IMG/VR virus record: IMGVR_UViG_3300015374_000004
Coordinates: 5,787 to 69,786 of that record
Direction: 5' to 3' (one strand)
Origin: a virus
DNA length: 64,000 bases
Under the pieces are notes generated by a model that was not told the DNA's origin, did not search any database, and saw nothing but the letters and a program-made list of their open reading frames with translations. Position numbers and translations under genes: made by a program. Positions 1 through 16,322 of the stretch are shown piece by piece; position 1 is the first letter of the stretch; each line of letters starts with the position of its first letter.

Positions 1-1964
1 TGCGCACCACGACCTACTACGGCGAGGTCCAGGACGGCGGCTCGACGAACCCCCGCCGCACCAAGAGCCGCTGCATCGTTCACAACGGGGTGAACCGCTA
101 CGCCGCGGTCGAACGGTCGGCCTCCCCCTCGAATGGCGTGGCCCGCTCCACCGACACTGGAGCGACGTGGACGGCCTGGTCGTTCGGGACCACCCGCAAC
201 TACACGGCGATGATGAAGTCGCCCCAGTACAACGCCATCTACGCAGCGGCCGACGACCGTACCGCCACCGGGGCTGACGGGGTCTACATCCTCACCGGCC
301 TCACCGGCACGGTCACAGTCACCCGCATCGACAACATCGGGACCGGCGCTCCCACCCTGGCCGATGTCCGTGATGTGTTCGTCGGCCACATCGGCACCAC
401 CGACTACGTCTATGTTGCTGTGGGGAACCTCTCCGGCTCCGATGCCGACCGCGGGGTATGGCTCTGCAAGGTCAACGCAGACCCAACGGGCGGCGGCTTC
501 GGGGCTGGGAACTTGACGTGGACCCACGTCCTCACGCCCGGCACGGCGGACAGGATCAACTGCGTCGTGGGCTACCAGCCGAACGCTGGGGCCACGCCCA
601 TCTACTTGATGGCGACGTACTTCAAGTCCTCGACGAACTCCTCGGGCACCTACACGCTGAGCCCTGGGGCTGGCGGGACGGTGAAGTCCTACCGGGTCGT
701 CGCCCAGCGCAGCGTCAACGCTGACGACGCCTCGCCTTCCTGGCTGGTGTGCTCGGGCTCGGCGAATGTCGACATGACGACTTACGCGACGACCCATCCG
801 CACGTCTTGTCCTATGTGGGTGAGACGTCGAACGAGAACGGGCGCTTCGGCGGCACGTCCTACTCCTCGCAGGATCTCGCCATCTCGGCCAACGGCCAGC
901 GCATCGTGTCGGCTGGCAAGTCCTCGCCGTGGGTGTGCGACAACCCCTGGGATGCGACGCCCATCTGGCGGCCGTTCTCGAAGGGGCTCGGCGCGCTGGA
1001 GGGCGGCTACGCCAGCATCTTCCTCCCCGAGAAGGGGTGGTGGGCGATCGCTGACGACGACCGGGGGATGTACACCTTCGGCCACATGGGCTACGTCGTG
1101 CCGGAGTGGGTGATCGCCGAGAACATCGACGGCGTCGTCTCCACCGCGAACGCCATGAACAACATCTCACTGATGGTGGACCGCGAGCGGATCCTCACTG
1201 CCCGAGAGACGGACGGCAAGGACTACATCACCACGGACGGCTGGGACTACAACGCTGCCTTCATCACGGCCGCCTCGGTGGGCACTCGCACGTTCCCTGG
1301 ACTCGGTGCGTGGCAGTGGGTGGACGGCACGTCGACCACCCGCCTCCTGGAGGTGGACTCCGCAGCGATACGCAGGGACGGCACGATCGTCGCCTCGATC
1401 CCCTCGACGGCCACCCGCGCCGAGTTCCTCCACTCCGGGAACGTCTGCTGGCTGCACTACCCGGACCTGGGCATCTATCGCTCCACCGACAACGGTGCGA
1501 CGTGGGTGCTCTGGTGGAACAACCCGATCAGCGTCAGCCAGACCGCCAAGTACTCGGGGCACATGACGCTGGAGCCGCCCAACACCCTGTGGATCACGTT
1601 CGACACGCCCGGTGTGTGGCAGGCCGTGGACGCTGACACCTCGGCCGTAGGGACGGGGATCTCCGGCTCGCGCCCTGGCACCACGAACAAGGTGACCGGC
1701 GGCGCGCTGTCCACCGGCAACGAGTACGTCTCGGGGATCTCCTTCGACCTGTGGCGGGGCGACGTGTGGGTCTGTGGCTTCGACCCGACTGGCGCTGCTC
1801 CTCCTGGGCTCTACGTCCTGCGCAAGAACACGTCGAGCGCCTGGCACGATATGACGACGCCGGAGTACCGGGAAGCCTGCATCATCCCGCAGTTCCTCAA
1901 CGTCTACGACGGCACAGCGTTCATCTCTACGGCGTCAAACGCCACGCTTCGGAGGATGGCCTGA
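1..1964 (+). CDS. BNR/Asp-box repeat (sialidase-like beta-propeller) protein, probable tail spike or fibre; 5' end lies outside the window
   Basis: Frame is open back to position 1. Two BNR motifs, 'STDTGATW' and 'STDNGATW'. The position continues the tail module seen at the window end. Confidence 0.6.
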   Translation, partial: RTTTYYGEVQDGGSTNPRRTKSRCIVHNGVNRYAAVERSASPSNGVARSTDTGATWTAWSFGTTRNYTAMMKSPQYNAIYAAADDRTATGADGVYILTGLTGTVTVTRIDNIGTGAPTLADVRDVFVGHIGTTDYVYVAVGNLSGSDADRGVWLCKVNADPTGGGFGAGNLTWTHVLTPGTADRINCVVGYQPNAGATPIYLMATYFKSSTNSSGTYTLSPGAGGTVKSYRVVAQRSVNADDASPSWLVCSGSANVDMTTYATTHPHVLSYVGETSNENGRFGGTSYSSQDLAISANGQRIVSAGKSSPWVCDNPWDATPIWRPFSKGLGALEGGYASIFLPEKGWWAIADDDRGMYTFGHMGYVVPEWVIAENIDGVVSTANAMNNISLMVDRERILTARETDGKDYITTDGWDYNAAFITAASVGTRTFPGLGAWQWVDGTSTTRLLEVDSAAIRRDGTIVASIPSTATRAEFLHSGNVCWLHYPDLGIYRSTDNGATWVLWWNNPISVSQTAKYSGHMTLEPPNTLWITFDTPGVWQAVDADTSAVGTGISGSRPGTTNKVTGGALSTGNEYVSGISFDLWRGDVWVCGFDPTGAAPPGLYVLRKNTSSAWHDMTTPEYREACIIPQFLNVYDGTAFISTASNATLRRMA

Positions 1965-2677
1965 TGGCCCTGGTTCCCTGCACAGCCGACACCGACACCA
2001 TTGACTTCGACCAGGACGTCAGCGGCAACCTGATCGCCAACGTCCGGCTGGACCCGGCTGGTGGTCTGTCCTCGACCGGCGCGGGCATCAAGGCGAACCT
2101 GGCTGCTGCTGGTGGCCTCGGGTTCGCAGGCAACACCATCCAGATCAAGGCTCAGTCCGGTGGCGGCATCGTCATGGACGGCAGCGGGGTCATCGCCCGG
2201 CAGTTGTTCACCTACACCGGATGGCGGCCGGGCCTTGGTGACAACCAGACCCACTCCCAGTCGATCCCTCGCGGCGCCCAGTTGCAGGTCGGGCCAACCC
2301 TCAGCCTCAACCTGTCGCTCGCCCCCACGATCGCCAGCGTCGTCGGGGTCGGCTTCACGTGGACCGTCAACATGAACACGAACCTCACTGGCTTCGCCCC
2401 AGCCGGGTCGTCGGTGTTCGACACGGTCACGGCCAGCCTGCAGGGCAACTTCGACAACGGCGGCTGGTTCAACGTGGACGAGGCCGCCCTCTACACCAGG
2501 GACCAGGCTGGCCTGTACTCCCTGTCCGGGCTGGTGGCAGTCGGCCTGGCCAACTCCACTGTCCACAACATGCAGGCCCGTCTCGTCGCCACTGGCGGCA
2601 CGCTGTCGGGCACGTCCATCCAGGGAGCCATCACCTCCTCCCAGCAGCGCGGCATCTACGCCCTCTACATGTCCTGA
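1964..2677 (+). CDS. Gly/Ser-rich tail fibre-like protein
   Basis: ATG overlaps the upstream stop (TGATGG). Gly-rich repeats 'AGGLGFAGNTIQIKAQSGGGIVMDGSG'. Confidence 0.5.
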   Translation: MALVPCTADTDTIDFDQDVSGNLIANVRLDPAGGLSSTGAGIKANLAAAGGLGFAGNTIQIKAQSGGGIVMDGSGVIARQLFTYTGWRPGLGDNQTHSQSIPRGAQLQVGPTLSLNLSLAPTIASVVGVGFTWTVNMNTNLTGFAPAGSSVFDTVTASLQGNFDNGGWFNVDEAALYTRDQAGLYSLSGLVAVGLANSTVHNMQARLVATGGTLSGTSIQGAITSSQQRGIYALYMS

Positions 2678-3051
2678 ACCTCGATCACGTCGAGGACGAG
2701 GCGGATCATGCCGGGGGCCACGTCCTGGCAGACGACTGGCGCGTGGAAGCGGACCCACTTGACGTACCGGCCGTCGTCATCTGGCATCACGCGGGCATCC
2801 ACCAGGCCGTCGATCGCGGCCTTGGCCAGCAGGGCGTGGGCCACAGGATCACCGAGCGACTGGCGCTTGGTGCCCTTGCAACGGTCGAAGTAGACCTCGA
2901 AGCCGAAGGGTGGCGCCACCTTCCTGGCGATGGTCATGCCAAGCCAGAAGAAGTCCTCCCTCCACTGCTTGACGATCGGTTCTCGCTTCGTCCAGTGGGA
3001 CGAGATCGCCGTGTTCACGGTCAGGGGAGCGCCACTGTGGGTGAGTCTCAT
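2665..3051 (-). CDS. rusA: RusA-family Holliday junction resolvase
   Basis: 128 aa. Motif 'DPVAHALLAKAAIDGLVDARVMPDDDGRYV' matches the RusA Asp-rich catalytic core. RBS GAAGGGA lies upstream of the ATG. Confidence 0.65.
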   Translation of the reverse strand: MRLTHSGAPLTVNTAISSHWTKREPIVKQWREDFFWLGMTIARKVAPPFGFEVYFDRCKGTKRQSLGDPVAHALLAKAAIDGLVDARVMPDDDGRYVKWVRFHAPVVCQDVAPGMIRLVLDVIEVQDM

Positions 3052-4499: not shown

Positions 4500-4798
4500 C
4501 CTGGGTGGTCGTCTTGTCCCTGGTGGTGTACCGCATCACCCGGTTCCTCATTGACGACGACCTGATCAACGAGCCTCGGGCCTGGCTGCAGCGCACCATC
4601 GCTGGCGGCGTCCGCGGCCGAGCCCTCCGCATCAAGTTGCTGGAACTGATGCAGTGCCCCTACTGCGTGTCGGTCTGGGTCGGAGCAGGCGTGGTTCTCC
4701 TCGCGAGCATTCTGAGCACAGTTCCCTACCCAGTGCTGACGTGGGGGGCAGCCTGTGGCGGTTGCATGGTGGTCTGGACGGTGGTCGAGACAGAATGA
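4490..4798 (+). CDS. DUF1360-like small membrane protein
   Basis: Two TM helices and a 'QCPYCVSVWVG' motif. Its stop overlaps the TerS start (ATGA). Confidence 0.5.
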   Translation: MWLTWVVVLSLVVYRITRFLIDDDLINEPRAWLQRTIAGGVRGRALRIKLLELMQCPYCVSVWVGAGVVLLASILSTVPYPVLTWGAACGGCMVVWTVVETE

Positions 4799-5256
4799 GC
4801 ATCATGTCCCCCGAGGAGACCCTCGCCTTCGAGAAGCGGGCCTTCCTGGAGAAGGTCAAGGACGGCGTGCCCCGCGTCCATGCGGCCATGGAACTCGGCT
4901 GGTCGCTGCGCAAGTTGGAGCGGCTGCTCCGGGAGCAGGACTTCCTGGAGATGGTCACCGACGTCGAGCAGTACGAGATCGCCGAGGTCGAGATGGTCCT
5001 CCGGGACAAGGCCAAGGCCGGGGCCATGGACGCCATCAAGATGTACCTGCTGAACAAGGCGCCCGAGCGGTGGTCGGAGCGCCGTGAGGTCAACGTCACC
5101 GGCACCTCGGCCGTGATCGTGGCTCACGTCGATGCCACCAGGAGCGCGCTGCGGGAACTGCTGGAGGATCCGTCCGCCAGAGATGCAGCCATCGCTGCGC
5201 TCATGCCCGGCGGTGTGATCGACGCGGAGGTGATCGAGGATGACGACAGCACTTGA
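4795..5256 (+). CDS. terminase small subunit
   Basis: About 153 aa. Shows the helical N-terminal and 'MYLLNKAPERW' features of actinophage TerS. Sits immediately upstream of TerL and overlaps it. Confidence 0.55.
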   Translation: MSIMSPEETLAFEKRAFLEKVKDGVPRVHAAMELGWSLRKLERLLREQDFLEMVTDVEQYEIAEVEMVLRDKAKAGAMDAIKMYLLNKAPERWSERREVNVTGTSAVIVAHVDATRSALRELLEDPSARDAAIAALMPGGVIDAEVIEDDDST

Positions 5257-6757
5257 TCCCAAGGATCAGGTGCGCCTGAGCCACATGGCTCTGCCGTCCC
5301 GCCTCGCCCAGTACGTCAGCAAGGATCTGTTCGGGTTCGAGTGGATTCCCGCGCCGCACATCGCCTACATGGAGCAGCGCGTGCTGGCCAACGTGCTGGA
5401 GCCGAAGAAGACGTTCATCTCCATCTCGATGCCGCCCCGCCACGGCAAGAGCCTGTACTGCTCAGCCGCGCTGGCAGCCTGGTTCCTGGGGATGTACCCC
5501 GAGAAGAACGTCATCCTCGTCACGTACTCGGAGGACTACGCCCTGCGGTACGGCCGTCTGGTGCGTGACATCCTCGCTCGCTACGGCAAGGAGTTGTTCG
5601 GCCGCTCGGTGAGCCGAGGCGCCAACTCGGTGACCGACTGGCAGATGGAGCGATCCCTCGGCGGGATGCTCTCCGTGGGTGTCGGGGGTGGTATCACCGG
5701 GCGTGGTGGTGACCTCATCATCATCGACGACCTGATCAAGAACCAGCAGGAGGCGCGGTCCAACGCCACCAAGTTGTTCCACAAGACAGAGTACGACGCC
5801 TCGATCCGCACCCGGTTGGAGACCGGCGGCACGATCGTTGCAGTCGCTACCCGGTGGGCGATGGACGACCTGCCCGGCCGCTGGCGAGAGATGGACGAGG
5901 CCGGTGACCAGTGGGAGTTCGTCGACTTCCCCTGCATCGCCGAGTGCCCCAAGGACGAAGACCCTGAGATCTGGCGAGATGAACTGGGTCGCAAGGACGG
6001 CGACGCTCTGTGGCCCGCGCGCCTGCCGGTCGAGGAGGCCATGAAGACGAAGGCGTCCATCGAGGAACTCGTGTGGGCCGCCATGTACCAGCAGGATCCC
6101 TCGACCCTGCAGACGGCCATGTTCCCGGCCGACAAGTGGGGCACCTACCCCTGGTACCAGCGCGACGAGGTGATGAAGAAGTGCGTGCGCTTCGTCCGAG
6201 CCTGGGACTTGGCAGCGTCCGAGGAGTCGGGCGACTGGACGGTGGGCGTGTGGATGGGGATGGGCTGGGATGGCCGCATCTACGTCCTCGACGTAGACCG
6301 CTTCCGCTCCGGCCCCACTGAGGTCGAGAACCGGGTGCTCAAGCGGGCCGAGGAGGATGGCGTCAAGACCCACGTCATCATCGAGCAAGAGAAGGCTGGC
6401 TCAGGCAAGACGGTGGTCGCCCACTACGCCCGCGTGCTGATGAACCGTGTGGTCGAGGCGATCCCGGTGACCGGCTCGAAGGATGAGCGCGCCATGATCT
6501 ACGCGGGCAAGATGGGCGCCGGGTTAGTGCTGATCCCCGACGAGATCCACTGGCGCAAGGAGTGGGTCGACGAGCACAAGTTGTTCGGCCGCATCAAGAC
6601 CGACGACCAGGTTGACGCCGCGGCCCACGGCTTCAACTACTTGGCGGACCAGGGCGGCGTGGCGAGGATCTGGTCTCCGGCCGAGATCCCCCTCAACTTC
6701 CACGCCGAGGAGCAACTACGTGCTCTCCTGGAACGAGGGGTGGTGGTGCGGCGCTAG
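5240..6757 (+). CDS. terminase large subunit
   Basis: 505 aa. Walker A-like 'SMPPRHGKS', an ATPase domain and a C-terminal nuclease domain with acidic residues. RBS GGAGGTGA. Confidence 0.8.
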   Translation: MTTALDPKDQVRLSHMALPSRLAQYVSKDLFGFEWIPAPHIAYMEQRVLANVLEPKKTFISISMPPRHGKSLYCSAALAAWFLGMYPEKNVILVTYSEDYALRYGRLVRDILARYGKELFGRSVSRGANSVTDWQMERSLGGMLSVGVGGGITGRGGDLIIIDDLIKNQQEARSNATKLFHKTEYDASIRTRLETGGTIVAVATRWAMDDLPGRWREMDEAGDQWEFVDFPCIAECPKDEDPEIWRDELGRKDGDALWPARLPVEEAMKTKASIEELVWAAMYQQDPSTLQTAMFPADKWGTYPWYQRDEVMKKCVRFVRAWDLAASEESGDWTVGVWMGMGWDGRIYVLDVDRFRSGPTEVENRVLKRAEEDGVKTHVIIEQEKAGSGKTVVAHYARVLMNRVVEAIPVTGSKDERAMIYAGKMGAGLVLIPDEIHWRKEWVDEHKLFGRIKTDDQVDAAAHGFNYLADQGGVARIWSPAEIPLNFHAEEQLRALLERGVVVRR

Positions 6758-9533: not shown

Positions 9534-11111
9534 TTAGAGGTTGCCCAGCGAGAACTCGCTGACCAGCCCCGGCGTGGAGCCGTCGAGGCCCACCAGGTCG
9601 AGGTGGGTGGCGTCGGTCGGATCGGCGATGGTGTACCGGTTCGCGTTCATGGCCACGAACGCCGTCCGAGCGTCGATGCCGGACGTCTCCTTGTAGGCGC
9701 GGAGCGCCTGGTGCGTGTGGATGTCGCCAGCCCACGTCTCGTTGTCCGTCAGGAAGACGAACGTGTCCACGTTCAGGTGCTCCTGCGTGGCCCACAGCAC
9801 CGGGAGGCTGGCGTCGGTCCCGCCACCACCGACCCGAGCGGCGAGCAACGCCTCACGGAGCGAGGACTTCGGGCTCATCGCCAACGGGTACAGCGAGCGG
9901 TCGTAGCCGACCACGGCGCAGTGCTCCTCGGTGGCCAGGGTCACCAGACCCATCGCAGCCCCAGCCTCGCGGCAGGAGATCGGGCTTCCGATGACGTGGT
10001 TGTTCATGGACCCCGACACGTCCAGGCAGATCAGCGTCCGCTTGCCGGACGGCTTGACGGTCTGGAAGGCCAAGGTGAAAGCCTCACCGAGCGCGTCCAC
10101 GATCTTGCCCTCGGGCACCCAGGTCTTGCCGGAGCGGTAGCCCCCGCCAGAACCGTAGACAGCCGAGGCCAGGAGGAACTGCATCGGGTGGACGCGGCCC
10201 CTCTTGATCACGTCGACGTCGGTGAGCCGCTCCACGACCCGCTTCGTGGTGTCGGAGAACGGCGCGATGAGGCCCACCGTGGTCATGGTGGCGAGGTTGC
10301 GCACCATGGCCGTGATCGGCATGTCTTCGAGCAGCGCCTCCCACACAGCGGGCGAGCGCAGCGCCTCGGAAGGCACGGCCTCTCGGGGCAGGCGGTACTG
10401 GCGGATGGCCGAAGCCACCGTCAGATCGTCAGCACCCTTGGACATCTCGAAGCCACGGATGACGTCGGGCAGGTTGCCGTCAGGCGTCTTGCCGACCACC
10501 CAGGCGAGGACGTCGTTGACGCCTCCCTTGGCCACCTCGGGGTGAGCGAGGCGCAGAAGGTCACGCTGAGCCCAGCCGTCTCGCGACTGGTACTTGACCA
10601 TCTGGTAGGCGAGGTTGTCGCTGGTCTTGCCCTCGTACCACCGGGCCACGGCGCGCCGTAGGCCCCGGCCCCAACCCCTGAACTGCTCGACGTAACTCGC
10701 GAACATGAGCAGATGGGAGCCGGTACGGCACACCGTGGCGATGGCGGCCTCGCCAGCCCGGCGGGTGACGGGGTCAGCCGCACCGCAGCAGGCAGCGAGA
10801 GCGAACAGGGTGGCGTTCTGCTTGGGCGCCAGACCCAGTTCGCTGACCAAGGCCAGTTCACGGACAACGCGAGGCCCGTCCGCAGCGATGCAGCGGAGCA
10901 GGACGGTGGCGTTCTCCTTGGTGAGATCGCGCTCGGAGATGTAGGCGGTGCCCCCATCCGTGCCGAGGACCAGGAACCGGCGAAGCCGCATCCAGTCGCT
11001 CGACTCGAAGACGAACCCACCGGCCGTGTTCTGCACCATGTCGGTGCGGGTGGGGTCGGGCTCGCTCTGAGGGGTGGCACGCGTCCCGAAGGCGCGCAGG
11101 GGATCAGTCAT
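9534..11111 (-). CDS. rsr: Ro60-like RNA-binding protein (TROVE domain plus C-terminal vWA with MIDAS)
   Basis: About 525 aa. Helical-repeat TROVE region and a vWA 'LICLDVSGSMN' DxSxS motif. RBS GGAGG 9 nt before the ATG at 11111. Confidence 0.8.
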   Translation of the reverse strand: MTDPLRAFGTRATPQSEPDPTRTDMVQNTAGGFVFESSDWMRLRRFLVLGTDGGTAYISERDLTKENATVLLRCIAADGPRVVRELALVSELGLAPKQNATLFALAACCGAADPVTRRAGEAAIATVCRTGSHLLMFASYVEQFRGWGRGLRRAVARWYEGKTSDNLAYQMVKYQSRDGWAQRDLLRLAHPEVAKGGVNDVLAWVVGKTPDGNLPDVIRGFEMSKGADDLTVASAIRQYRLPREAVPSEALRSPAVWEALLEDMPITAMVRNLATMTTVGLIAPFSDTTKRVVERLTDVDVIKRGRVHPMQFLLASAVYGSGGGYRSGKTWVPEGKIVDALGEAFTLAFQTVKPSGKRTLICLDVSGSMNNHVIGSPISCREAGAAMGLVTLATEEHCAVVGYDRSLYPLAMSPKSSLREALLAARVGGGGTDASLPVLWATQEHLNVDTFVFLTDNETWAGDIHTHQALRAYKETSGIDARTAFVAMNANRYTIADPTDATHLDLVGLDGSTPGLVSEFSLGNL

Positions 11112-11169
11112 GTGGATGTTGCCTCCAGTCAAGTGGTTGACGTCCCGACCAGTTGCATCGAGAACAGGA

Positions 11170-11424
11170 CGCCTCCGGCCCGGAGGGCCAGATCTAACGA
11201 TGCGGTCAAGTGAGTGGTCCGGGGGTCGACCACGGCGAACCGTGGCGGCGGGATTTGAACACCGCTCACTTCTTGCGAAGCGTCATCCAGAGGTAACCCG
11301 AGCCTGTCGGCCCGCATCTATGTCGATGGTCGGATGGTCAAGGGTTGGCTGCGGGAACTGGTTTCATCCAGAGTGAAAGGTAACCCGCTGCCTTCGGCCC
11401 ATCCGAAGTTCTGAGGGACAGTAT
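11170..11424 (-). ncRNA. candidate Y-RNA-like (Yrl) structured ncRNA(s) between tRNA-Cys and rsr
   Basis: Non-coding 325-bp gap upstream of rsr on the same strand. Contains a T-arm-like 'GGTGTTCAAATCCCGCC', a UUCG-tetraloop hairpin (CCACGG-TTCG-CCGTGG), a cloverleaf-like closing stem AAGTGAG/CTCACTT, three copies of 'ACTCACT(T/G)GACC' and a duplicated 'CGGGTTACCT..CTGGATGA' module. Flanked by a TATACT -10 and a GC hairpin. Confidence 0.35.
11172..11187 (-). terminator. GC hairpin (CCTCCGG/CCGGAGG) downstream of the structured RNA and upstream of rsr
   Basis: Inverted repeat followed on the minus strand by CGTCCTGTTCTCG. Confidence 0.3.
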
Positions 11425-11457
11425 ACTGGAGACTGCTCACCGGTCCAGTGAGTTTCG

Positions 11458-11528
11458 AGGGGTGGGCCGGACTCGAACCGGCGTAGTCCGCTTTGCAGGC
11501 GGACGTCTAGCCACTCGACCACCACCCC
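11458..11528 (-). tRNA. tRNA-Cys (anticodon GCA)
   Basis: Minus strand 5'-GGGGTGG..TCCGC-CTGCAAA-GCGGA..GCCGG-TTCGAGT-CCGGC-CCACCCC-T. 7-bp acceptor, anticodon loop CUGCAAA, T-loop TTCGAGT. 71 nt, no encoded CCA. Confidence 0.8.
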
Positions 11529-11533
11529 GGTAG

Positions 11534-11998
11534 TCAGCCGTGAAAGGTTGCCCAGGCCCCGTACCCCGCACGGCTCCACACGTCGTACGCAGCGTTGGCG
11601 CACGCCTGCGGGTCGTAGAGCAGGTCGTACATGGACGCCTGGATGATCCCCAGCGCCAGGAGCCGCTTCTGGTGGGCGGTCCTGTTGATCTGCCACCAGC
11701 AGAAGTCATGCGTCGGCGAGACGGCCGTGAGCGTGTCCTGGGACTCCCGCCAGCAGAGCGCCGACATGACGGCCCACTGGCTCCGGGCGAACCCGGCATC
11801 CCGGAAGTATGGGTAGGCATCGGCACATGGCCGCCCGGCCGTGTCCTCAGCCTCCTCCGCGTTGAACTGGGCGACGACCTCATCGACCTTCTCTTGGCCG
11901 ATGATAGGAAGCCACTCGAAGTACCTGTTCATCTGGTTGAACGTGCAGGATGAGCAGGTCAGCACGATCACGAAGGCTGCAGCGATTGCTCGCTTCAT
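11534..11998 (-). CDS. lysozyme-like / SLT-domain lipoprotein (peptidoglycan hydrolase candidate)
   Basis: Signal peptide plus lipobox 'VLTCSSC'. 'CWRESQ...FCWWQIN' resembles the SLT/lysozyme-like E-S...Q motifs. RBS TAAGGAGAGGAAC. Confidence 0.5.
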   Translation of the reverse strand: MKRAIAAAFVIVLTCSSCTFNQMNRYFEWLPIIGQEKVDEVVAQFNAEEAEDTAGRPCADAYPYFRDAGFARSQWAVMSALCWRESQDTLTAVSPTHDFCWWQINRTAHQKRLLALGIIQASMYDLLYDPQACANAAYDVWSRAGYGAWATFHG

Positions 11999-12019
11999 GT
12001 TCCTCTCCTTACGCGCAAA

Positions 12020-12040
12020 CGCCCAGGAAAGACCTGGGCG
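12020..12040 (-). terminator. intrinsic terminator hairpin CGCCCAGG-tcttt-CCTGGGCG followed by TTTGCGCG
   Basis: Perfect 8-bp stem with a U-rich tail on the minus strand, between the 12081 gene and the lipoprotein RBS. Confidence 0.45.
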
Positions 12041-12080
12041 TCGCGCCAGGCTAGTCCGGCCCTGTCACTGGATGAAGTGA

Positions 12081-12296
12081 TCAGGCGGTGGGCCGGGAGC
12101 CTCTCCGTGGCGACGTTGGGGATGGATCGGGTTCTAACCAGTCGCATGTGTTGTCACCCCATTCGTGGTTGCAGGTGTGGTCGATGCCGACCAGCAGGAC
12201 GTGGCGCAGGCGGTTGACGGGCTTCTGCATCCGACAGACGGTGCAGACGATCCAGTCGTGGTCTGTGGTCCGGCGTCCTGGAAGGCGGATCATCAT
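12081..12296 (-). CDS. small Cys/His-rich protein (putative zinc-binding)
   Basis: 'CTVCRMQK...HTCNHEWGDNTCDW'. RBS GGAAGGA. Confidence 0.45.
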   Translation of the reverse strand: MMIRLPGRRTTDHDWIVCTVCRMQKPVNRLRHVLLVGIDHTCNHEWGDNTCDWLEPDPSPTSPRRGSRPTA

Positions 12297-14921: not shown

Positions 14922-16265
14922 TCACTCCCTTGCTCCGGCGGGTAGTTCCAGGAGGCCGCCCTCGATGAGTTCGAGGCGGCGCTCGAAGTAGGCGCCGAGA
15001 TCTTCCTCGTCGTTGGGCTCCAACGTGTCGGAGATCACGATGATCTCGTCGTCGGCGGCGTCGTCAGGATGGGTCAACCCCTGCAGGTGCTCGGTGATGG
15101 CTGCGGCGTCGGCGGCCTGCTCGGCGTCGTAGTTGTCCACGGTGATGACCCTGGACAGGTCAGCCACCTTGTCGAGACCGTCGCACTGGATGTACCTGGT
15201 GGACAGCCTGTCGATGGGGACGACCACGTCGTCGACGACGGTGTAAGGGTCCAGCGAGATCATCACCGTCGCCAGCACTCGGCCGACATCGGTGATGATG
15301 CCGGGGAGCGGATCACGCCGCATCCCGTCGTCGCCCTTGTGGGGACGGAACCAGATCTTGTTCCCGACCACGAGGTCGTCCTCGCTGATCGGCTTGTCGT
15401 TGGCCAGGACGCTCTTCGGCTCGTCGGCCGGTTTCGTGGCCGAGGTGGTGCCTCGGTTCCACTCGATCCAGTCGTCGTCGTCGTGGCTCCAACCGCCAGC
15501 GGTGTAGGTGCTGGTGTAGGAGCGGCGGGTGTAGCCCCACGTGTCGGGGATCTCGAACTTGTCCCAGAGGAGGAAGTCGAACGTGTCCCCGTTGTACGAG
15601 CCGATGAAGCCTTCCTCGGCTTCCTCGGGCTTCGTGTCGGTCGGCTCGTTCAGGTAGATGAGACCTGCCTGGACAGCGCCAGGAGTCGAGCCGAACATGA
15701 GTGAGCCGTTCTGGCTCATGGCGTAGCAGAGGGGCGAGCCCTCGCCGCGAGCCATGTTGAGCACCAGAGGCTCTCGGACGTCGATCCACGCCGTCGCCAT
15801 GTGACCCTCGATGAGGCCCAGGGCCTCCTTCGGATCTTCGACGTTGGCCAGGGCAGCGAAGATCGCCTCGGAGTCAACCTCGGCGTACTGCGGCCACCGC
15901 TTGGCGGCGAACAAGCGCTTGTCGTTGTTCACCCACCCGTTGTGGATGCCGATGATGTGACCCGACTGGACCGGATGGTTGTTCCGGTTCACCAGCGGGT
16001 CGCCCTGAGTCGCCAGTCGGGTGTGGATGAGGGCCAAGCGAGCGCCCTCTCCGATTCCCGGCCTGCTGTCGAAGAACTGGCCCGCGGCAACGGGGGCCTT
16101 CGACAACTTGACTCGACCGCTCGCTGACACCCGAACGACGCCTGTGGCGTCGCGGCCTCGATGCTCGATCGAGAGGCCCATCGTGCGCACCATCCTTGCG
16201 ATGCGCGACGGGTCGAGGTCGGCGTAGTCGAGCGGCGACAGGACAAAGCCTGCGATTCCGCACAT
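14922..16265 (-). CDS. class II (Ntn) glutamine amidotransferase domain protein with an acidic C-terminal domain
   Basis: 'MCGIAGFV' places the nucleophile Cys at position 2, so the start must be at 16265 rather than the upstream Met. 'GIHNGWVNN' also present. Confidence 0.65.
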   Translation of the reverse strand: MCGIAGFVLSPLDYADLDPSRIARMVRTMGLSIEHRGRDATGVVRVSASGRVKLSKAPVAAGQFFDSRPGIGEGARLALIHTRLATQGDPLVNRNNHPVQSGHIIGIHNGWVNNDKRLFAAKRWPQYAEVDSEAIFAALANVEDPKEALGLIEGHMATAWIDVREPLVLNMARGEGSPLCYAMSQNGSLMFGSTPGAVQAGLIYLNEPTDTKPEEAEEGFIGSYNGDTFDFLLWDKFEIPDTWGYTRRSYTSTYTAGGWSHDDDDWIEWNRGTTSATKPADEPKSVLANDKPISEDDLVVGNKIWFRPHKGDDGMRRDPLPGIITDVGRVLATVMISLDPYTVVDDVVVPIDRLSTRYIQCDGLDKVADLSRVITVDNYDAEQAADAAAITEHLQGLTHPDDAADDEIIVISDTLEPNDEEDLGAYFERRLELIEGGLLELPAGARE

Positions 16266-16322
16266 GTGTTCTATGTGCCTCACTTTCTGCGGGATCCACC
16301 CGCGGTAGGACACGTGTCCGTG

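Follow-up and report, generated by a model that had tools for sequence, protein, structure and literature searches.

A predicted Y-RNA array upstream of rsr in an actinophage-like genome and a Y-RNA-like module at the rsr ribosome-binding site

Gene content of the rsr locus

The window, by which we mean the whole 64-kb stretch of viral DNA analyzed here, comes from a siphovirus-like actinophage genome that is GC-rich (about 66%) and carries genes for a portal, a major head protein, a 2012-aa tape measure, minor tail proteins, a DnaB-like helicase, Erf and a YqaJ exonuclease. On its minus strand, an SLT-like lysozyme gene is followed by tRNA-Cys(GCA), a gap of 345 nt and rsr, which encodes an ortholog of Ro60. 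Small ORFs of 62, 40 and 100 aa overlap this gap, in which the pattern of conservation is helix-compensatory and the lengths of the modules vary among relatives. In the direction of transcription, the features are as follows.

11534-11998, minus strand: SLT-like lysozyme gene, upstream of tRNA-Cys
11457-11528, minus strand: tRNA-Cys(GCA), found by ARAGORN (Rfam tRNA, 63.4 bits), just upstream of the array
11420-11447, minus strand: promoter-like site TGGACC-16 nt-TATACT, the sole sigma-70-like match in 10900-12200 (0.2 expected)
11330-11406, minus strand: module 1, a predicted short hairpin Y RNA (covariance model R1, 53.9 bits, E=1.2e-8)
11198-11319, minus strand: module 2, a predicted Y RNA with a partial tRNA-like insert (R1, 24.3 bits, E=0.009 over the whole window, 65-nt loop insert)
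11185-11194, minus strand: anti-motif strand GAUCUGGCC(C), conserved, immediately 5′ of module 3
11121-11187, minus strand: module 3, a Y-RNA-like rsr 5′ leader (R1 with filters off, 20.8 bits, E=2.6e-4, full length)
11122-11126, minus strand: rsr Shine-Dalgarno sequence GGAGG, 10 nt 5′ of the ATG, within the 3′ strand of the module 3 closing helix
9534-11111, minus strand: rsr (Ro60 ortholog of 525 aa; ATG at 11111-11109), with Pfam TROVE (4.5e-44) and vWA_Ro60 (2.2e-48) domains

The closest relatives of the Ro protein are encoded by Logan contigs L086 (58% identity) and L087 (52%, syntenic with the SLT gene). Transcription from the promoter-like site, which is called here as a consensus match, is predicted to start ~5-8 nt 5′ of the closing helix of module 1. 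By eye, TATACT and TACACT hexamers occupy the equivalent relative position in L086 and L092, and neither of these −10 boxes was called by the promoter scanner. Intrinsic terminators, including U-tract terminators, were not called in the region. A 7-bp hairpin (11436-11452) located between tRNA-Cys and the array overlaps the −35-like hexamer. The tRNA-Cys(GCA) gene itself lies 50 nt 5′ of the array on the same strand, an arrangement that recalls the Yrn2-tRNA-Asp-Yrn1 precursor of Deinococcus radiodurans. A gene resembling those of glutamine amidotransferases is found near rsr both in the window (14922-16313, minus strand) and in L086 (3637-4911).

Y-RNA modules and their family

YrlA-like RNAs adjoin rsr in 254 bacteria and 22 phages, and share a 5′ GNCGAAN0-1G motif as well as V, T, acceptor and D hairpins (Chen et al. 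2014, PMC4201824). The same authors report at least two Y RNAs per species studied, a single precursor made of Yrn2, tRNA-Asp and Yrn1 in D. radiodurans, and the processing of YrlA and YrlB from a precursor upstream of rsr in Mycobacterium smegmatis; short Y RNAs of the YrlB/Yrn2 type had eluded bioinformatic discovery (Chen et al. 2014, PMC4201824). Mimicry of tRNA is a known property of bacterial Y RNAs.

Judging from motifs, helices and family covariation, the stretch upstream of rsr is very probably a Y-RNA array. It consists of three modules, all on the minus (rsr) strand and 10-295 nt upstream of the rsr ATG, within the distance of about 4 kb on the same strand that Chen et al. (2014) describe. 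The modules share a Y-RNA core in which the 5′ and 3′ ends form a closing helix, the Ro-binding 5′ strand GGGCCG(A/G)(A/C)(G/A)G has a bulged C, the 3′ strand reads CUUGAC, and there is an upper helix. Module 1 reproduces the GNCGAAN0-1G motif exactly (GCCGAAGG), and modules 2 (GCCGACAGG) and 3 (GCCGGAGG) each depart from it by one base; GCCGGAG is the usual actinophage form of the Ro 5′ motif. With the promoter-like site at one end and rsr following without a break at the other, 11121-11447 (minus strand) probably constitutes a small RNA operon, an assignment that includes the roles proposed below for its parts.

Module 1 is closed by a perfect 8-bp helix between TCGGATGG (11406-11399) and CCATCCGA (11337-11330), which confirms the long-range pair recognized in the original prediction. 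The enclosed stem (GGCAGCGGG/CCCGCAGCC) also exists, as 8 Watson-Crick pairs flanking a central A.A mismatch rather than as the continuous 9-bp stem that had been proposed. From the closing helix onward, the module comprises GGGCCGAAGG, the A.A-mismatched upper helix, GGGUUACC, a pyrimidine-rich loop containing the hairpin CUGG-AUGAAA-CCAG, and the 3′ strand CCCUUGACC (fold z=−2.9). Its length of 77 nt and its loop, made of CCUUUCACUCU and a 4-bp hairpin, are those of a short hairpin Y RNA, and by sequence and predicted fold we assign module 1 to the YrlB/Yrn2 type. The strands UGGGCCGAAGGCAGCGGGUUA and CCCUUGACC are unusually near the vertebrate consensus. At curated thresholds, Rfam detected only the tRNA. 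At relaxed thresholds, 11331-11406 matched ceN72-3, a nematode Y-like sbRNA (28.4 bits, E=1e-3, below gathering), and Y_RNA (RF00019; 19.7 bits, E=0.21, below the gathering score of 38 bits), and 11199-11319 gave weaker matches than module 1, likewise below gathering.

In module 2, the closing helix GAUGCGG/CCGCAUC is followed by GGGCCGACAGG and by three hairpins: a GNRA-capped V hairpin (11282-11267, CGCUUC-GCAA-GAAGUG), a T-arm-like hairpin with a GUUCAAAUC loop, the stem of which needs a bulged U (11265-11248, GCGG[U]G-UUCAAAU-CCCGC), and a 7-bp, UUCG-capped acceptor-like hairpin (11246-11229, GCCACGG-UUCG-CCGUGGU). ARAGORN called no tRNA in the module. A YrlA RNA has both a T arm and a D arm (GUAGCUCA..UAGAGC), and D-arm sequence is absent from module 2; Rfam YrlA (RF02553, gathering score 69 bits) gave no match at E≤10 in 11050-11600. 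Module 2 is therefore not a canonical YrlA. For comparison, phage Cali and L086 score 36.1 and 36.8 bits with the Rfam YrlA model, both below gathering, and units with a T arm and no D arm occur in other loci as well. As predicted from its fold, module 2 would work like YrlA, yet it is no member by Rfam's standard or by the D arm of Chen et al.

Modules 1 and 2 have a G.A opposition at the pair beside the bulged C, a position at which 90 of the 91 other family members have G-U or G-C. The combination of this G.A with a CUUGAC 3′ strand, the latter as in metazoan Y RNAs, is found in window modules 1-3, L086, L087, L088, L091, L092, L133, L245 and L247, and may reflect co-variation with the Ro protein clade.

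When the region and 25 kb of the window were compared by blastn and megablast with 50,697 phage records, no match was returned, and the best Ro relatives reach at most 47% identity in phages, at most 49% in IMG/VR and GTDB, and 58% in a set of 5.8 billion proteins. Since there was no close relative for a direct phage alignment, we relied on covariation at the level of the family. We gathered 85 rsr loci from IMG/VR contigs, GTDB genomes and the phages Cashline, Farewell, FuzzBuster and Cali. The rsr-upstream gaps of these four phages each contain 2-3 tandem, unannotated units with the pattern G(G/U)(C/U)CG(A/G)...(C/G)GGUUAYC and a closing helix, and a regex scan found such units throughout rsr flanks. 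A strict metazoan-type pattern (CCGA...CTTGA with a 7-bp stem) recovered only the window's own modules in the first 81 loci, and was too narrow, so the looser 5′ motif was adopted. An exact scan for CGGGTTACCTCTGGATGA in IMG/VR gave 0 matches, and a metagenome scan for GATCTGGCC-N2-10-GGGCCGGAG returned mostly chance matches within coding regions, with Ro downstream in 1 of 110 loci examined.

Covariance model R1 was built from 18 short rsr-adjacent modules of other phages and bacteria, with the window excluded and a hand-drawn structure of 21 pairs. Over both strands of the whole 64-kb window, R1 matches modules 1 and 2 only. Over the 85 sources (637 kb), it gives 92 matches at E≤1e-3, all of them in the orientation of rsr and grouped close to it on either side. 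In the family alignment, which is fitted to the model, 92% of cells are paired, compared with 65% after shuffling and 36-46% with slid partners, and 19 of the 21 pairs vary on both sides. The seeds were picked by a regex demanding GGTTAY and an 8/8 closing helix, so that the evidence for helix 1 is to some extent a product of that choice; no such selection acted on helix 2, the upper helix, which covaries at all nine pairs. The modules thus have the structure of Y RNAs as laid out by Chen et al. (2014), with R1 matches that are full length and a closing helix that was used in choosing the seeds.

The family also turned up arrays of other kinds. Six to eight tandem Y modules precede one rsr in L004 (IMG/VR 3300020020_000028, 667-2957) and L005 (1737-2620). 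In L070 (Deinococcus yunweiensis, ~600-3000), more than 2 kb upstream of rsr are dense with tRNA-like genes interleaved with Y modules. Downstream of rsr, two or three near-identical short Y modules that are the top-scoring R1 matches lie in Vicinamibacterales (L056, L058, L060 and L068, ~4646-5014) and in Sorangium loci (~5206-5511). GenBank records of Ro-encoding actinophages (L085, which is Cali, 1597-1946; L082, L083 and L084) have no annotated Y RNAs, and the Cali YrlA, at 36 bits, is missed by the Rfam gathering score of 69 bits.

That the region might be an ordinary promoter and 5′ UTR, with repeats and palindromes arising by chance, is extremely improbable. GC-rich DNA folds readily, the fold z-scores are just −1.9 to −2.9, and TTGACC is not enriched across the window (32 copies for 25 expected), all of which suits a chance origin; against it, the sole R1 matches in 64 kb land here and on the correct strand, the family covaries strongly, and an exact 18/24-nt motif for which 100 shuffles predict 0 occurrences is present. 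This repeat, CGGGTTACCT(N0-6)CTGGATGA, occurs exactly twice in the window, as originally noticed, although its copies lie at 11283-11300 and 11364-11387 (minus strand), ~8-14 nt from where they had been placed, and it corresponds to a junction conserved in the family, made up of the last part of the upper helix, UUAC and the beginning of the V region. The TTGACC sequences, considered as −35 or promoter boxes, were rejected as such, because they belong to CUUGAC, which all three modules have as the 3′ strand of their Ro-binding helix; the three minus-strand copies first counted reduce to two exact ones in the interval (11204-11209 and 11336-11341), the third being a TTGACT just outside it (11127-11132). 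As far as sequence analysis can go, a plain promoter or 5′ UTR with chance repeats is refuted. Decay of tRNA genes, or remnants of an integration site beside tRNA-Cys, would account for the GUUCAAAUC T-loop and acceptor-like hairpin of module 2 and for the genuine tRNA 50 nt upstream. We nevertheless regard such an origin as very unlikely, given that modules 1 and 3 are devoid of tRNA features, that the Ro-binding core of all three modules also adjoins rsr in unrelated genomes, and that bacterial Y RNAs are known to mimic tRNA. The proposal that had guided the analysis, two tandem YrlA/YrlB-like ncRNA units in place of a promoter region, thus holds insofar as an independent model finds exactly both units, their family covaries and rsr lies downstream; it falls short in that the modules are three and the longer unit is not a canonical YrlA.

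The module at the rsr ribosome-binding site

Module 3 lies outside the interval first singled out. Its closing helix pairs CCUCCGG (11186-11180) with CUGGAGG (11128-11122), the Ro 5′ motif GGGCCGGAG and the 3′ strand CUUGA are intact, and the upper helix is GGCGUCC/GGACGUC. The loop motif has decayed to UGUUCUC, a degenerate form of GGUUAYC, and the R1 score is modest. We conclude that module 3 belongs to the rsr mRNA leader, because there is no room for a promoter before the ATG and because the N-terminus of the product, M(T/A)DP, is conserved, being common to the closest relatives.

In L086 and L087, Y modules also lie directly upstream of rsr, the last one running into the Shine-Dalgarno sequence. 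A survey of Shine-Dalgarno pairing in which 7/8 pairs sufficed, G-U included, was rich in false positives, and distances derived from the model were used instead. Among 56 loci with an upstream module, the 3′ end of the module lies 3-10 nt from the start codon in seven (the window, L086, L087, L090, L091, L092/93 and Microbacterium phage FuzzBuster) and at least 18 nt from it in the remaining 49. Three more loci, L133, L245 and L247, came from pattern scans. The resulting set of modules that embed the Shine-Dalgarno sequence numbers 10 (the window, L086, L087, L090, L091, L092/93, L084, L133, L245 and L247), of which 8 are distinct as trimmed. The helices are the following.

Window and L086: CCUCCGG/CUGGAGG
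L091 and L092: CUUCCGG/CCGGAGG
L245 and L247: CCUUCGG/CCGGAGG
L090: UCUUUCGG/CCGAAAGG
L133: UCUUCGG/CCGAAGG
L087: a bulged variant
FuzzBuster: CCCUUCGG/CUGAAAGG, with one mismatch

In these helices, 95% of cells are paired, compared with 26-58% for slid partners, three pairs vary on both sides, and C-G/U-A exchanges occur at helix positions that include bases of the Shine-Dalgarno sequence. Pairs were counted on fixed-length segments joined by an artificial linker. We regard this covariation as supportive but modest, since it comes from 8 distinct sequences and pairing is required of every Y-RNA closing helix in any case. The Ro 5′ motif is kept in 10 of 10 sequences, and in all 10 the Shine-Dalgarno sequence, which is GGAGG in the window, lies in a Y-like closing helix, so that an RNA-binding site overlaps the ribosome-binding site of its own mRNA. 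The modules of L133 and L247 have a T arm, as do genuine Y RNAs.

A second structure is available to the leader. UCUGGCCC (11192-11185), within the anti-motif strand, can pair with GGGCCGGA (11181-11174) to form an alternative hairpin of 8 bp, in which the Ro motif is masked and the Shine-Dalgarno sequence is free. This hairpin is the minimum free energy fold of the window leader, and as its 3′ arm is the Ro motif, its formation excludes the Y-like fold. The sequence UCUGGCC is invariant in 8 of the 10 embedding modules and is followed by C/U, whereas the surrounding spacers differ. In FuzzBuster, both strands are changed (CUUCACCC and GGGUCGAAG), yet the pairing is kept; the hairpin is otherwise conserved with almost no covariation, FuzzBuster alone being different. 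CTGGCC was never found upstream of 60 ordinary modules, where the median length of the longest helix that can form with the Ro motif is 4 bp. Constrained folding, computed for both states in five leaders, yielded differences of 0.6-4.6 kcal/mol. In the window, the Y-like fold reaches −28.8 and the alternative −33.4, which favors the alternative by 4.6 kcal/mol; in L086, constrained folding gave −34.2 and −31.7, in the same order of folds.

These features suggest a model in which modules 1 and 2 would be cut from a precursor and bound by the phage Ro protein, and could then tether Ro to an effector or gate its cavity, as bacterial Y RNAs do. Module 3 would be a Y-RNA mimic inside the rsr mRNA leader. 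Free Ro, when in excess of Y RNA and substrates, would bind the leader, lock the closing helix and occlude the Shine-Dalgarno sequence. Otherwise, the alternative hairpin between UCUGGCC and the Ro motif would sequester the latter and keep the Shine-Dalgarno sequence open, corresponding to an 'on' state. Autoregulation of Ro is plausible because the Shine-Dalgarno sequence lies in the module 3 helix, the Ro motif is kept and the competing strand is specific to this class. We tentatively propose module 3 as a Ro-responsive translational switch through which Ro would control its own synthesis by means of a Y-RNA-mimic leader, a reading that we hold as a serious possibility. No report of Ro/Rsr autoregulation was found in the searchable literature, whose coverage is incomplete.

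A purely structural role for module 3 is conceivable, though we find it somewhat doubtful. The module could set a fixed, low level of Ro translation relative to the Y RNAs, or it could be a third Y RNA whose excision destroys the ribosome-binding site, each transcript giving either Y RNA or Ro, in both cases with no feedback by Ro. The position of the Shine-Dalgarno sequence within a helix, the processing of Y RNAs and rsr from one precursor in M. smegmatis, and the T arms of the L133 and L247 modules are all compatible with such a role. However, occlusion needs an anti-Shine-Dalgarno strand only, and retention of the entire Ro 5′ motif in 10 of 10 sequences therefore disfavors mere occlusion; the class-specific anti-motif strand, invariant in 8 of 10, also goes unexplained, and near-equal fold energies would suit a switch better than a fixed brake. 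A different function can be imagined for the GAUCUGGCC hairpin itself, as a processing site, as a 5′ stabilizer of mature rsr mRNA after Y-RNA excision, or as a weak attenuator, instead of as one arm of a switch. The hairpin is GC-rich, represents the minimum free energy fold and sits exactly at the junction of modules 2 and 3 in all relatives. We consider these functions rather unlikely, as the 3′ arm is made of the Ro-binding motif, which renders the hairpin incompatible with the Y-like fold, and no U-tract terminator was called. Our preferred reading of module 3 as a candidate Ro-responsive switch is the one carried into the comparisons below.

Comparison with known systems

The Yrn2-tRNA-Asp-Yrn1 locus of D. 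radiodurans (Chen et al. 2000, 2014) resembles the window in having several Y RNAs and a tRNA gene on the rsr strand, in that the Ro-binding helix is recognizable in both its strands, as in metazoan Y RNAs, and in the pairing of one short hairpin Y RNA with one that has a T arm and no full D arm. Unlike it, the window array is phage-encoded, its tRNA is upstream of the promoter-like site and not between Y RNAs, G.A takes the place of G-U/G-C (or of the metazoan U-A) beside the bulged C, and the third module is fused to the rsr ribosome-binding site. With the YrlA/YrlB RNAs of Salmonella, M. smegmatis and mycobacteriophages (RF02553), the window modules share a location next to rsr on the same strand, a GNCGAAN0-1G-type 5′ motif, a YUAY (UUAC) junction, the order of V, T and acceptor-like hairpins, and the presence of one long and one short RNA. 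They differ in that module 2 has no D arm, a bulged T stem and no RF02553 match, and in that the window keeps the CUUGAC 3′ strand, which Chen et al. describe as unrecognizable in Salmonella and M. smegmatis. Module 1 further fits the UGG(U/G)CCGAAGG.AG.GGGUUA ... UUCCC...CUUGAC pattern of metazoan Y RNAs (RF00019) and nematode sbRNAs (RF01656). In contrast to these RNAs, it is below gathering (38 bits) and has no 3′ oligo-U, the context is sigma-70-like and not that of Pol III, and G.A replaces U-A.

Leaders that mimic the target of an RNA-binding protein and mediate its autoregulation include those of the ribosomal-protein operons L1, S8, S15 and L20, the ThrRS operator, the T4 RegA and gp32 leaders and the MS2 coat operator. 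As in these systems, a copy of the protein's RNA site overlaps its own ribosome-binding site in the window, excess protein could block initiation, and alternative folds exist. The window mimic differs in being a whole member of a tandem array and not an isolated operator, and repression by Ro is here a prediction from sequence.

The predicted variant features of the window array are a Y RNA with a T arm and no D arm, G.A in the Ro helix, and a Y module fused to the rsr ribosome-binding site with a candidate switch. Because Y RNAs adjoining rsr are already established, what modules 1 and 2 contribute is chiefly further unannotated members, from a phage that has no sequenced relative. No phage record that we inspected annotates Y RNAs, and even the mycobacteriophage examples fall below the Rfam YrlA threshold; a covariance model restricted to the core can find short Y RNAs of the YrlB/Yrn2 type. 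The module fused to the ribosome-binding site is likely the sole part of specialist interest, its switch remaining hypothetical. If the proposed switch is real, a Y-RNA fold would serve as a cis-acting operator of Ro itself and hold the amount of Ro in line with its Y RNAs and substrates; this would be the first time that a Y-RNA fold is used in cis-regulation and that feedback control is described for a Ro60 ortholog. The architecture of module 3 is common to a clade of actinophage-like contigs and to the cultured Microbacterium phage FuzzBuster, whose host is Microbacterium foliorum.

Other associations between Ro-related sequences and the rsr start were seen at further loci. In L089, the stretch that separates the rsr ATG from the last Y module contains CUCCU-ACUUG-AGGAG (1892-1913), a potential small hairpin in which the Shine-Dalgarno sequence is paired; its ACUUGA loop resembles a remnant of the Y 3′ strand. 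Eleven Myxococcota loci (L018, L032, L033, L035, L038, L040, L042, L049, L051, L076 and L077) have GGGCCGGAGG-N5-8-ATG at rsr, ~10-20 nt before the ATG. In GGGCCGGAGG, the Y-RNA 5′ Ro motif is directly fused to a Shine-Dalgarno sequence, often after a small hairpin, and this fusion may be another route by which a Ro site comes to lie on a ribosome-binding site.
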